64,000 nt of DNA from Escherichia coli. Lineage in GTDB: Bacteria > Pseudomonadota > Gammaproteobacteria > Enterobacterales > Enterobacteriaceae. The first letter of the stretch is position 1. Every line of letters begins with the position of its first letter. A program made the position numbers. Shown here piece by piece: positions 17,501-23,500 of the stretch. Location: assembly GCF_016026235.1 (NCBI RefSeq), contig NZ_CP065613.1, one strand, 5' to 3'.

Positions 17501-20500
17501 CCCCGCCTGGTTCGTGGCGATTTTTTCGCCATGAACCATAGTGTTTTTGTCCTGTTCCTGTTCTTTCTCCTGTTCCTGTTCTTGGCTTCGAAGCCCCTTT
17601 AAAGCCCCTTCGAAGCCCCTTACCGTATTTCGGTTGTTATTTCGCCTTACATCCAGATGAAAATCCGTCTTATATCTGTCATAAAACGCTGAAAGAAAAG
17701 CGTTTTCAGGTAATGACGCATATTCACTCCTGACACCTGCACAACGGTTATCGCCAGGCTTTAACTTTCCCCCAACCTGCCAGGCTGCCATTTCATGGAC
17801 CCAGACCATCTCGGAATCATGGTCATAACTGCAAAAACCCACTTCGACAGCCCTTCGAAGCCCCTTCGAAGCCCCTTCCGGACCAAGCCCGGTTTCATGA
17901 GCAAGGTACAAAACCGGCAGGTAATACAGGCCCAGCATGTTTGCGTGAGGGGATGTCATCAGGTAAAAAGCAACCACCTGCGCTTCTGCGCCTGCCTTTC
18001 TGAGTTCTTTCCCCGTTTCTCCCAGCCAGAATCGCGGGGAAACTTTTGCGTAATCACGCATGTCCACCTCATCTGGTGCCGAACCTTCCTCCGGATATAA
18101 TCTGTGATTCCCCAATCAACAGAACCAGAGGAGGTTCGACATGTCTTTTTTGAAAAGCCTTTATCGGGCTCATATATTAAAAGTTGCAGCAACAAATCAC
18201 TGGCAAGAAGGAACAGATGAAATGTTGCCGGATTACCGGGCATGGCTGCGCGCCGAAACATACCTTCGTCTCGATATGCTGATTAACGATCTTCAAAAAG
18301 AGGCTCCATCCACTCAAACCCTTCAGGGTGTCGGCGCTGTTCGCGTTCTGGTATCTCGCCATAACGCTCTCTCAGTAACTGAAGTGCGTCAGCTTTCTTT
18401 TGCTGAACTGATTTTCTTGCTTCAGCCAGCTCTGGAATCAGTGAATATCCCATCGGAGGTGTTCCGGTATCCGCCCCACGTGAACCAACAGCTACAAGCT
18501 GCACAAGACAACAGGCATGCTGGATTGACTCCCTGCTCAGAGGCTGAATGGGATCATTCTCTGCTGAAGAGATACCAAGATTTGTATAATCCTCAATAAG
18601 CCGGGCGCACGCTTCAGCATCAGCCAGTTTTTTTCTGGTTTCCTTGCGCTGTTCTCTGACGGACAAACGCCAGAGCAGCGCATTGGCTTTATGCATCAGC
18701 CACTCTGCCAGTTCCACATCAGATAAACCGCCACGCCAGATGTGTGGACTGTTTTCGTAAACGCTCAGTGTCAGTTTTTTGTCATTGGTCATATTTATTG
18801 CCCCGTCAATGCACAGCCAGAGTATTTCCTGCCGGACCACCACGATTCATCTGATCGAACAGAACGATCGCTGATGCAACGAAATCATCGATATCTTTCA
18901 CCAGCTGTTCCTGCGTCTCCAGCAGTTCCCGAAAATAAACTGAACTGTGGCTGCGCATTCGGGCCACCAGCGGAGGCGGCATTGCCTTTTCGATCGCTGG
19001 TAACAACGCCTGAATTTTTTTAACAGCATCAGGGGTGTCTTTCTCTATCCAGCGGAAAATTTTCTGGGTATTGCGAGCCAGGGCTTCCGGATGGCTGTCG
19101 TCGTACAGTTCAGGGAACGTCATCCCCAGTTCGAAATAAGTCCGGGCTATCTCAGCCGCCGGAACTTTCTCACCATCAGGATATGCCCATGCATTCATCG
19201 CCATACGGATGTGCTCATGCTTGATTTTCATGAATCACCCCCCGCCGATGGTTGTGTGTTAGCCTGAAACTCAGCAGGCAAGCCGTCAGTTGGGTTGGGG
19301 TAGGTTTTACTGTCAATCTCATGTGGGGTCACCACCCATCCCGTTGCTTCACACCAACGTAATATTTTTTCTCCTGTAAGTTTTGCACGCCCCGTTATAA
19401 CGTGGCTGACCATCCCCTGGGATGCGCCAACAATCTCAGCAAATGAACTCTGGGTTATATGAAAATGATGCAAATATTCTCCAAGATTCATAATCCGCCC
19501 TATGTGATGTGTTACCAACGCATAATTAATAGCACTGTTATTTTTGAAAGTAAATAGCGATGCTATTTCAAAGTGATTAGCAATCTTATTAGAATTGGAT
19601 GTATGAAAAGAAAATCACTGTCAGACACCGACCTCAACGCCGCCAGAAGACTGAAAGAAATCTGGATGGCAAAGAAATCTCAGTTGGGATTGACTCAGGA
19701 ACGTGCGGCGGAAATTATGGGGTTTTCAACACAAGGGGCGGTAAGTCACTACCTAAATGGTCAAACCCCACTAAACCTTGAGGCTGTTCTAAAGTTTGCT
19801 GGCTTACTGAAAGTTCCCCCTGAGTCAATCAGGCCAGACATGGCAGATTTGCTGCAAATTGCAAGGATGTATTGTCGAGAACCACAGCAAGATAACATAG
19901 TCGCATTACCAGCAGACACAGAACAAACAGAGGATGAACTACCGTTTGCCGTAGAGCCGATGGAACGAGATTTAATCCATACGTTCAGAGCTTTTCCGAA
20001 AGAAGATCAAGAACACATGCTTCAGGAGATGAAAGATAAAAAAGAATCAATGGATCGTACGGTTGCGCGGTGGTTAGCTGCACAAAAAGGCCGTCGCGCC
20101 TAAATCAGAGGAGATATGTAAAATGAGTACAGTCCTTTCCCCAATGGTTTCAGAATTTGAGACAGTTGAGCAAGAAAATAGTTACAACGAATGGCTGCGG
20201 GCCAAAGTAGCAGCAAGCCTCGCGGATCACCGCCCGGCGATTCCGCATGATGAGGTAATGGCGGAAATGGAACAAATTATTGCCCAAATTGCTGCTGCAA
20301 CTCACAGAGGTGAATAATGTTACCCGTTTTATGGCTACCATCTGCTCGTGATGATTTGCGCCAGATCGTAGCCTACATAGCTAAAGAAAATCCCGCGGCA
20401 GCACGCAGAATGAAAATTCGAATTGAAACATCCGTTTTGCCGCTCACAGAGCATCCTTACCTGTATCCTCCAAGCGAGCGAGTTCTTGGTCTTCGTGAAA

Positions 20501-23500
20501 TTGTAACTCATCCTAACTACATCATCCTTTACCGAGTAACAGCATCAAGCATAGAAGTAGTAAATATTGTGCATTCTCGAAGACAGTATCCAGGCAAAAA
20601 CAGTTAATTATTCCCGCCGACAGAACCACCTTAGGGTGGTTTTTTCTTGCTCCAACAAAAAACAATAGCGATGCTATTTACATCAAAAAATAATGATGCT
20701 ATTGTTTCAGGCGTCAACCCACCCCGCCCCACAGAATGCAGGGCAATACTTCGAGTTACCAGGTAGTGGTCAGGGGGTAAGTAGCCAGCCCGAGGCGTAA
20801 GAACATGACGGCAGGGTTCAACTTTAACTATGCAGCAGGTTTTTGTTCCGCTCCCCCGGCGTTAAGGGGAAATGAGGTCAACATGGATACTATCAATCTT
20901 GGCAACAACGAATCTCTGGTGTGCGGCGTGTTTCCCAACCAGGACGGCACGTTCACCGCGATGACGTATACCAAAAGCAAAACGTTTAAAACCGAATCTG
21001 GAGCGCGTCGCTGGCTGGAAAGAAATTCAGGTGGGTGATATGGATTTCGACACAATCATGGAAAAGGCTTACGAAGAATACTTCGAAGGCCTTGCCGAAG
21101 GCGAAGAAGCTCTCAGCTTCAGTGAGTTTAAACAGGCGCTTTCCAGCCCGGCAAAATCTAACGGCTGATAAGCGAAGCAGCACCGCGAGGAATCAGCGTG
21201 CAGAAACGAGAACCCATCATCATCGCGCCAGACTATACCGATGATGAACTTTATGAGTGGATGCGCCAGAAAATTAATGCAGCGCAGGATCTGAAATGGG
21301 CTAATGAAGCCAGGGCTAAGCAGGCTGAAAATCTGTCCGCTCTGGAGCAGGATATCACCAATCTGGAAAAAGCAGCGGCATTAAGCATTGCCAGAATGAT
21401 TACATACCCGCGTTAGTAGCTAATCAACAAAGCTAAGGTTAGTAATTAAGGAGTTCTCCACGGGTGAGGTGGAGTGCGTGCGCCGGACACGGGTGAGCAT
21501 CCGGCACTGACAGTTTACTGAAAGGATATTTCCCTGAAAAGTCAGACCATAACGCGAAAGCGCACGGCGAGGTAGCTGGTTCATAGATAGCCTGTCGTTA
21601 AATTTTCGTCGACCGTGCGCTTCCGGTTGTGGCAATCCGCGAAATGGCGCGGCGGTAAGTATGGCGGGGTTATTCCTTCCCCCGTTGAGGACACCGGGTT
21701 GTCAGGTTGACCATACGCTTAAGTGACAACCCCGCTGCAACGCCCTCTGTTATCAATTTTCTGGTGACGTTTGGCGGTATCAGTTTTACTCCGTGACTGC
21801 TCTGCCGCCCTTTTTAAAGTGAATTTTGTGATGTGGTGAATGCGGCTGAGCGCACGCGGAACAGTTAAAACCGAAAACAGTGTTATGGGTGGATTCTCTG
21901 TATCCGGCGTTAATTGTTAACTGGTTAACGTCACCTGGAAGCACCAGGCACCGCATCACAAAACTCATTGTTGAGGGCGCGATAATGAAAACGTTATTAC
22001 CAAACGTTAATACGTCTGAAGGTTGTTTTGAAATTGGTGTCACTATCAGTAATCCTGTATTCACTGAAGAGGCCATTAACAAAAGAAAACACGAACGGGA
22101 GTTATTAAATAAAGTATGCATTGTTTCAATGCTGGCCCGTTTACGTCTGATGCCAAAAGGATGTGCACAATGAATCCAGTATTTGCACTTATTCTGACGG
22201 TTTTTCTTGTTTCCGGAGAGCCAGTTGATATTGCAGTCAGTGTTCACAGAACAATGCAGGAATGTATGGCCGCAGCAACCGAACAGAAAATTCCAGGCAA
22301 CTGTTATCCGGTCGATAAAGTTATTCACCAGGATAACGAAATCCCGGCAGGATTTTAAAACAGCACCGTAATAAATATCCAGTTTCATTCTTATATGTCA
22401 GCAATGGCAGAGATTTGTTCACCCTTAAATCTGTGATGAGGTTTATCAATAATGAGCACTGATAAAGAAGAATTTGCACTATATTGCGAAGCAAAAAATG
22501 ACAAAGTAAGAAAACGCCTGGGAATTAAAGGTGGTTTTTACTGGACTACAGCAAAAAAATTATCTGTTGCAATCTCCCGCTGCATTACCGCAATGGATGA
22601 CAACGATTATGATGAAGACGACTTTAAAAAACCCGTCCGCGTCAATTTGCCCGTTGTTGACGACCTTCCGCCAGAAGGCGTGTTTGATACTGAATTCTGC
22701 AACCGCTATGAAAAAGGCGGGAAAGATGGCATCACAATGACATTTATCGGCCCTTCCCCCTCTGTTCAGGACAAATCAGCCAGCACTGATAATACCAACA
22801 TCAACGGCGAAGACATGACTGAGATTGAGGAGAGCATGCTTCTACCTGTCTCCGGTCAGGAACTGCCCATTCGTTGGCTTGCTCAACACGGCAGCGAAAA
22901 ACCAGTAACGCACGTTTCACGCGACGAACTCCAGGCATTACACATTGCACGGGCTGAAGAACTACCGGCTGTTACTGCCCTGGCTATTTCGCATAAAACC
23001 AGTCTGCTCGACTCGCTGGAGATTCGCGACCTCCACAAACTGGTTCGTGACACTGACAAAGTTTTCCCTAATCCTGGTAATTCAGACCTGGGACTAATAA
23101 CTGCTTTTTTCGAAGCATACCTGGACGCTGACTACACTGATCGGGGCCTGCTGACAAAAGAGTGGATGAAAGGAAATCGTGTTTCACGCATCACCCGCAC
23201 GGCTTCCGGTGCTAATGCTGGCGGTGGGAACAAAACCGATCGCAATCCGAATTTAGTACACACCCTCGACACACTGGATGTGGAGATTGCAGCAGCCACA
23301 CTTCCGATGGATTTTAATATTTATGAAATTCCGGGCAGCGTTTATCGTCGCGCAAAAGAAGTAGTCCTGAAAAAAGAAAGTCCGTTCAAAGAATGGTCCG
23401 CAGCACTTCGTGCAACCCCGGGTATTCTGGACTATTCCCGCGCCGCTATTTTTGCACTTATCCGAAGCGCACACCCTGAATTTTATCACTACCCGGGACG

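Follow-up and report, generated by a model that had tools for sequence, protein, structure and literature searches.

The closest described relatives of the gene pair analyzed here are the paaR-paaA-parE systems of Escherichia coli O157:H7. According to the summary of Hallez 2010 given in PMC4803016, paaR-paaA-parE is a tripartite type II toxin-antitoxin (TA) system co-transcribed from a promoter upstream of paaR and regulated by PaaA-ParE together with PaaR, and the same source summarises that O157:H7 holds two paralogues between which there is no cross-neutralisation. The pair that we describe lies at 20123-20607 in a 64,000-nucleotide stretch of the E. coli contig NZ_CP065613.1 (assembly GCF_016026235.1), the whole of which is called the window below, and it consists of an antitoxin gene and a toxin gene behind a prophage repressor. 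Our analysis indicates that this is very probably a real TA system, a three-component type II system of the PaaR-PaaA-ParE type which is carried as addictive cargo by a lambdoid (Qin/CP-933-like) E. coli prophage, its TA genes being the last two cistrons of the operon that begins with the repressor gene. The arrangement is already published, and what the window contains is one more heteroimmune allele of the known system.

The paaR2-paaA2-parE2 genes lie within the immunity region of CP-933P (= Sp12), a cryptic lambdoid prophage (Jurenas 2021, PMC8630535), and paaR-paaA-parE has been described as a set that 'replaces rexA and rexB' (Prolic-Kalinsek et al., PMC9986795). PaaR2 is a CI analogue without an autocleavage motif and its translation is leaderless, a property that paaR2 has in common with lambda cI. 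YdaS and YdaT are the analogues of Cro and CII, respectively, and equivalents of the operator OL and the early-left promoter PL are found downstream of the TA genes (PMC8630535). The same study reported that PaaA2 is without any DNA-binding motif, that the CP-933P locus is bistable with the TA genes transcribed in both states of the switch, and that the region stabilises an unstable mini-F as well as ccdAB does. Jurenas et al. proposed that addiction limits rearrangement of the immunity region (PMC8630535). For this homologue, toxicity, neutralisation, degradation of the antitoxin by ClpAP/ClpXP and addiction have been shown (PMC8630535, PMC4803016).

The PaaA-ParE pair behind the repressor

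The original prediction placed a 'ParDE-like' pair between the repressor and the OL-like operators, and both open reading frames (ORFs) were found intact at the coordinates it gave. The genes and the terminator that follow them are:
19603-20103 (+): prophage repressor, 166 amino acids (aa), with a lambda-CI-like helix-turn-helix (HTH) N-domain and a PaaR/DicA-type C-terminal part of ~45 aa
20123-20317 (+): PaaA-family antitoxin, 64 aa, without a DNA-binding domain (Pfam, PDB and NCBIfam matches)
20317-20607 (+): ParE-family toxin, 96 aa (Pfam and PDB matches)
20622-20650 (+): predicted intrinsic terminator closing the repressor-antitoxin-toxin operon, with a stem at 20622-20643 followed by a T-run

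The family name held for the toxin but not for the antitoxin, which is of the PaaA type and not a ParD. The toxin covered the entire Pfam ParE_toxin model (PF05016, E 2e-17) and matched ParE2 of E. coli O157 (PDB 5cw7_B, Sterckx 2016; E 6.7e-37, 128 bits, 67% identity over 92 aa), with weak PDB matches to the canonical ParE entries 6x0a, 5ceg and 3kxe. A RelE-like mRNA interferase was considered and rejected, since the TIGR02385 score of 29.3 bits was barely above the cutoff of 27.9 and the match to ParE2 was far stronger. The antitoxin aligned with PaaA2 of E. coli O157 (PDB 3zbe/5cw7, E 2.4e-22), and the PaaA2 model (PF21217, E 3.4e-21; model of 33 residues) was its sole Pfam domain, as no ParD-type or other DNA-binding domain was found in that search. 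The NCBIfam model NF050103 ('RelB family antitoxin') scored 91.7 bits against a cutoff of 50, covering residues 5-49 only.

Several features connect the two genes with each other and with the repressor. The antitoxin ORF begins 19 nt past the repressor stop and the toxin ATG overlaps the antitoxin stop (TAATG), which points to translational coupling. Each TA gene has its own Shine-Dalgarno sequence, GAGGAG at 20109-20114 for the antitoxin and AGAGGTG before 20317 for the toxin. The scan placed no promoter in the 19-nt gap and predicted no terminator on the + strand between the repressor and the end of the toxin, and there is a single strong one after the toxin (fold -15.4 kcal/mol, z = -3.8; none of 200 shuffles folded as well). 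Directly upstream and on the same strand stands an HTH regulator gene, the third gene by which the PaaR-PaaA-ParE type is recognised. The layout supports a single predicted operon of repressor, antitoxin and toxin.

For comparison we used the corresponding loci of strain RMDEC465 (L001), of a third allele (L002), of a CP-933P-type prophage recovered via the exact ParE2 sequence (L003) and of the second O157 copy (L006; strain 155, ~1.17 Mb). The last is presumed to be paaR1-paaA1-parE1 of CP-933M, by elimination, as O157 genomes have two places and PMC8630535 names CP-933M. The identities of the window proteins were as follows:
Third allele (L002): toxin 88%, antitoxin 84%
Second O157 copy (L006): toxin 83%, antitoxin 78%
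ParE2/PaaA2: toxin 67%, antitoxin 65% (73% local)

Divergence from PaaA2/ParE2 was concentrated in the last ~18 residues of the antitoxin (the C-terminal helix) and in toxin residues ~8-40, which have changed together. From this pattern we infer a co-diverged TA interface, and probably no cross-neutralisation with PaaA2. In comparisons with three diverged alleles, in which synonymous sites had come close to saturation, the ratio of non-synonymous to synonymous substitution rates (dN/dS) of the antitoxin was 0.06-0.17 and that of the toxin 0.06. Strong purifying selection on both genes is suggested, which is consistent with, and indirect evidence for, their maintenance as functional proteins.

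Immunity region and predicted transcription signals

The gene order given by the original prediction, from the OR operators over the CI-like repressor, the antitoxin, the ParE toxin and the terminator to the OL operators with PL and the early-left operon, could be followed through the region. Its parallel with lambda cI-rexA-rexB likewise agrees with the gene order as we checked it and is stated in print for the homologous CP-933P locus (PMC9986795). The remaining elements of the region are:
18806-19231 (-): regulator of the YdaT family (CII analogue) with 141 aa, matching phrog_163, 'CII-like transcriptional activator', at E 9e-45
19221-19238 (+): putative YdaT operator (OM-like), TTGATTTTCATGAATCAC, an inverted repeat at the cro-like/ydaT junction
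19228-19491 (-): Cro-like HTH regulator of 87 aa, encoded divergently from the repressor and matching phrog_35 (transcriptional repressor) at E 1.8e-16
19526-19554 (-): putative promoter PR, TTTACT-17-TATTAA, driving the cro-like/ydaT operon, read by eye
19528-19590: OR, three operators, AATAGCACTGTTATT (19528-19542), AATAGCGATGCTATT (19553-19567) and ATTAGCAATCTTATT (19576-19590), spaced by 25 and 23 bp
19567-19595 (+): PRM-like promoter, TTCAAA-17-TAGAAT, from the promoter scan
20664-20705 (+): OL, two operators overlapping PL, AATAGCGATGCTATT (20664-20678) and AATAATGATGCTATT (20689-20703)
20883-22173 (+): start of the PL (early-left) operon with ydfA, ydfB, ydfC, the small RNA DicF and dicB, in the order of K-12 Qin

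The repressor is a composite protein. Its first ~90 residues align with the N-terminal domain of lambda CI (PDB 1lmb, E 1.3e-9; Pfam HTH_3), and over the C-terminal 44 aa it shares 52% identity with PaaR2. The C-terminal ~45-60 residues also match positions 74-130 of the DicA model NF007257, with 29% identity to the C-terminal domain (CTD) of K-12 DicA. When the PDB was searched for a relative of the C-terminal part or a solved PaaR2 structure, only entries of the lambda CI N-domain were returned. All repressors compared share a C-terminal block, ..FxAFPxxxQ...KKxS....IARWxAAQKxRRA, and among them this common block is combined with three unrelated N-terminal domains. Pfam gave HTH_3/HTH_31 only and residues ~95-166 had no Peptidase_S24 match; a repressor without the S24 autocleavage domain should, as judged from its sequence, not be RecA-inducible. 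The most likely start is ATG 19603, since the alignment with lambda CI begins at residue 2 of its product and since the corresponding ATG is the start that PGAP annotates in the RMDEC465 locus (98% identical). The alternative GTG 19573 was rejected because the -10 element of PRM would fall inside the longer ORF.

For the Cro-like protein, whose start was taken as PGAP annotates it in the RMDEC465 locus, no alignment with YdaS of CP-933P was found. We therefore dropped the label 'YdaS homologue' in favor of a Cro-like HTH protein of another specificity, and the lack of detectable similarity to YdaS points to a different immunity specificity. The YdaT-family protein is 82% identical to YdaT of the CP-933P-type locus, and PGAP gives a homologue of the window protein the label 'toxin YdaT family protein'. 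Next to it, between the ydaT-like and replication-initiator genes, a 169-aa protein is encoded at 18283-18792 (-) (phrog_8304, full-length, E 1e-91); RMDEC465, the closest E. coli relative, has other genes at this position.

In a DNA alignment of the window with CP-933P, homology ends at the cro-like/ydaT junction and resumes in the middle of the repressor gene. These break points delimit a swapped immunity cassette made up of the cro-like gene, the operators and the N-domain of the repressor, which, as read from the alignment, is ordinary lambdoid mosaicism. The window copy is a heteroimmune variant because its repressor N-domain, Cro-like protein and operators all differ from those of CP-933P.

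The operators are formed by a 15-bp palindrome, AATAGC-N3-GCTATT. Across all 64 kb, copies with 0-1 mismatch are confined to 19528, 19553 and 20664; a copy with 2 mismatches is found at 20689 and the degenerate third OR copy at 19576. The OR half-sites are kept in the 82% identical third allele. PL was called by the scan at 20677-20705 (+) as TTTACA-17-TATTGT with an extended TG, and the putative PR is its inverted counterpart (inverted repeat I1, 78%). Only 111 bp separate the divergent ATGs at 19491 (-) and 19603 (+). The divergent repressor and cro-like genes, three OR and two OL copies of one operator and the adjoining PL together characterise a lambdoid immunity region. Within OR, the site 19576-19590 lies under PRM, 19553-19567 abuts the PRM -35 element and 19528-19542 overlaps the putative PR, so by analogy with lambda they resemble OR3, OR2 and OR1, respectively. 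From the PRM-like promoter, transcription is predicted to start on the A of ATG 19603 or directly beside it, a spacing from which a leaderless repressor mRNA is predicted.

The putative YdaT operator TTGATTTTCATGAATCAC has 1 mismatch to the published YdaT site TTGATT-N6-AATCAA (PMC9986795) and is one of two 1-mismatch matches in the 64 kb. Since the overall match count was at chance level, it is the position that speaks for this putative site, and this position is kept in 4/4 aligned loci, in the form TTGATTTTCATGAATCA(C/A).

Function of the pair and alternative explanations

The mechanism that we propose follows the CP-933P homologue. Transcription would start at the PRM-like promoter as a leaderless repressor mRNA, with a probable second start at a YdaT-activated PRE-like promoter, and the transcript would pass through repressor, antitoxin and toxin and stop at the terminator at 20622-20650. 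As the antitoxin has no DNA-binding domain it would only wrap and neutralise ParE, and control of TA transcription would thereby be delegated to the prophage switch, with the repressor and the Cro-like protein competing for AATAGC-N3-GCTATT at OR and OL. If the antitoxin is labile (ClpAP/ClpXP) and the toxin stable, as in the homologue, loss or replacement of the stretch would leave free ParE, leading to DNA damage, SOS induction and growth arrest. The net effect would be addiction, by which the immunity region, and thereby the prophage, is stabilised. Prophage stabilisation was one half of the function suggested in the original prediction, and it has experimental backing, by analogy, from the 65-83% identical O157:H7 relatives. 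What the window itself offers as a basis is homology together with the order of the genes, the operators, the promoters and terminator that were predicted, the coupled translation of the TA genes and the purifying selection on them.

Some observations weigh against this interpretation. Single cells showed no detected ParE2 activity in either switch state (PMC8630535), so a benefit to phage or host is hypothetical, and the cellular target of the PaaA-linked ParE branch, gyrase included, is not established (PMC8630535). Co-transcription, toxicity, neutralisation, protease dependence, post-segregational killing and bistability all come from the 65-83% identical O157:H7 homologues, and it is by transfer that we infer them for the window copy. 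Given the unrelated N-domain, Cro-like protein and operators, the behavior of the switch (bistability, PRM activation) may differ from that of CP-933P. PR escaped the promoter scan, its minus-strand -10 element being without T at the last position, and we regard the assignment of TTTACT-17-TATTAA to PR as weak. The numbers of promoter-like and terminator-like matches in the region were not above the shuffled expectation; the calls rest on position, homology and analogy with the mapped CP-933P promoters and not on statistics.

DNA homologous to the TA genes occurs in 841/5426 complete E. coli genomes. Among complete genomes, RMDEC465 matches the 2-kb region at 97.9% identity and 70 more do so at ~82%; there PGAP annotates HTH, YdaT family, RelB-family antitoxin and RelE-ParE toxin. 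At least 1000 public contigs, many of them from Shigella sonnei, carry exactly this toxin sequence; the exact repressor and antitoxin are on 39 and 30 contigs, respectively. A near-identity search found no isolated phage with the whole 2-kb region; the matches, at 86-89%, extended over ~26% of it, in ydaT and the flanks downstream. By protein search, phage Evi is the single isolated phage with a ParE2-type toxin; its region is of the paaR2A2E2 type and the toxin was left unannotated. The linkage of repressor CTD, antitoxin and toxin recurs in four independent alleles.

This linkage bears on whether the pair could instead be a canonical two-component ParD-ParE system, autoregulated by its antitoxin and located beside the repressor by chance. 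The PF05016 fold of the toxin and the PGAP name 'RelB family antitoxin' for its neighbour would fit such a system, but the antitoxin matches PaaA2 only and has no DNA-binding domain of ParD/RelB type, for which reason we reject it; the absence of a placed promoter in the 19-nt gap and the recurrence of the linkage in four alleles make chance association highly improbable as well. We also regard it as quite unlikely that the pair is selfish cargo or a decaying remnant, a hitch-hiker in the repressor operon that makes no difference to prophage or host. In favor of this, most of the carriers described to date are cryptic prophages, none of the steady-state conditions revealed ParE2 activity (PMC8630535), and the same immunity scaffold works without TA genes in K-12 Qin. 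Such a fate is however difficult to combine with two intact, full-length frames, with dN/dS values as low as those above despite synonymous sites near saturation, with the spread among E. coli genomes and contigs, with the presence of the pair in the isolated phage Evi, and with a homologue that is demonstrably addictive (PMC8630535).

The original prediction also raised lysogen-expressed exclusion, in which infection would shut down host transcription, or titrate or degrade PaaA, so that ParE is freed and the infection aborted in a RexAB-like manner. Type II TA systems with labile antitoxins are increasingly found in phage defence, and defence genes are known to have a hotspot in the slot that follows prophage repressors; both count in favor of this explanation, as does the position of the pair, which equals that of rexAB in lambda. 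Transcription of the homologue in the repressor-on state, and indeed in both states (PMC8630535), would also fit. On the other hand, PADLOC defence models gave no match for the antitoxin, the toxin or the repressor, and family and PDB searches turned up no RexA/RexB homology, both TA proteins matching only PaaA and ParE models. Our literature search found no specific report of an anti-phage or exclusion role, or of any phage phenotype, for PaaA-ParE or prophage ParDE, and the authors of the homologue study propose addiction, not defence (PMC8630535). We therefore consider abortive infection unlikely, and addiction by a PaaR-PaaA-ParE system is the reading that we retain.

Speculatively, and with low probability, the pair could act beyond addiction, either as a Rex-like exclusion device or as a safeguard that keeps heteroimmune lambdoids from replacing the immunity region through recombination. 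The latter idea fits the finding of at least three unrelated N-domains joined to the same repressor CTD and TA genes, with a breakpoint inside the repressor gene; unrelated Cro-like proteins and operators were seen in the single pair compared, window and CP-933P.

The family, the three-component architecture, the rexAB position, regulation by CI, Cro and CII analogues and addiction are all published, and thousands of E. coli and Shigella assemblies already have exactly these proteins annotated, which leaves little discovery value. The value of the locus is comparative, as PaaA-ParE and the PaaR/DicA-type repressor CTD travel together across heteroimmune switches. The alleles are a natural chimera set for asking whether the TA genes constrain recombination of the immunity region and whether any allele confers phage exclusion.

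The surrounding prophage and comparison with known systems

The chromosome flanking the prophage is 99.9% identical to that of O55:H7/O157:H7 strains, and prophage head genes are found at the left of the window. A tyrosine integrase (25155-26195, +) directly adjoins tRNA-Ser(CGA) (26223-26312, -), the likely attachment site and right prophage end. In the early-left operon, DicF was identified at 21759-21810 (+) (Rfam RF00039, 76.7 bits) and the cell-division inhibitor dicB at 21985-22173 (+) (NF049927, 130.7 bits), and the operon continues past dicB with DUF1482 and an exonuclease. With DicF and dicB in this operon, derepression of the prophage should block cell division. The 98% identical RMDEC465 relative carries a Rha-family (antirepressor-like) gene between ydfC and dicB, and the window is without such a gene.

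Four phage-borne tRNA genes (Gly-TCC, Thr-TGT, Lys-TTT and Met-CAT) lie at 11365-11674 (-). On one side of them, a 229-aa ORF (11873-12562) is from its position a putative Q antiterminator, with no family match, and on the other side two ORFs (10360-11072) were read from their translations as a putative holin and lysozyme. In the nin-like region a 51-aa ORF (14425-14580, -) resembles Hok-family type I toxins (NF007279, with 48.5 bits where the curated cutoff is 73) and may, by sequence, be a second TA system of the prophage. In its nin region, RMDEC465 has an extra canonical ParD/ParE-family pair (L001, 1670-2232), and at the corresponding place in the window (14386-15232) no ORF of at least 90 aa is present. 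Just outside the prophage, by tRNA-Asn, a 2643-aa ORF (27742-35673, +) has an inverse-autotransporter N-terminus (IatC/intimin-like, 1129 bits, below the equivalog cutoff) and appears to be a giant adhesin gene.

Compared with K-12 Qin, the window has the same divergent cro-like/repressor pair, the same DicA-type C-terminal domain and the same PL side with ydfA-ydfB-ydfC-DicF-dicB, but Qin has ydfA right after dicA, without TA genes between them. The absence from Qin indicates that the TA genes are optional cargo in the slot downstream of the repressor. Homology with Qin resumes just upstream of ydfA, and no clean insertion scar was definable in this comparison.

With canonical ParD-ParE systems (RK2, Caulobacter, Vibrio cholerae) the window pair has in common the toxin fold family PF05016 and a protein antitoxin that neutralises a protein toxin. 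It differs in that its antitoxin is a PaaA, with two recognition helices and no DNA-binding domain, and in that regulation falls to a separate third protein. The likeness to lambda lies in the accessory genes behind the repressor between OR and OL, with transcription from PRM (in the window a predicted one) and a terminator before OL/PL, and further in the three OR operators, the predicted leaderless repressor mRNA and a repressor N-domain homologous to that of CI. In contrast, the TA cargo is unrelated to RexA/RexB and the window repressor is without the autocleavage domain stimulated by RecA; Rex acts in exclusion, while for PaaA-ParE it is only addiction that has been demonstrated.

By sequence, the second O157 copy is the closest of the O157:H7 copies. 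The window shares with it the C-terminal helix of the antitoxin (MAEME..IAQIA) and the flanking genes ydaT, ydfA, ydfB and dicB, but the repressor of that copy has 133 aa, a third different N-domain and 37% overall identity. CP-933P has the same genes in the same order and orientation throughout, from ydaT, the cro-like gene, OR, the repressor, paaA and parE over the terminator region to OL/PL and ydfA..dicB..exonuclease, and in both prophages the repressor is without an S24 peptidase domain. The difference is in the switch itself, where the 166-aa window repressor with its lambda-CI-like N-domain stands against the 123-aa PaaR2, which has no detectable similarity to that domain, the Cro-like proteins are unrelated, and the window has AATAGC-N3-GCTATT operators where CP-933P has GTTTAGTAA-type repeats.

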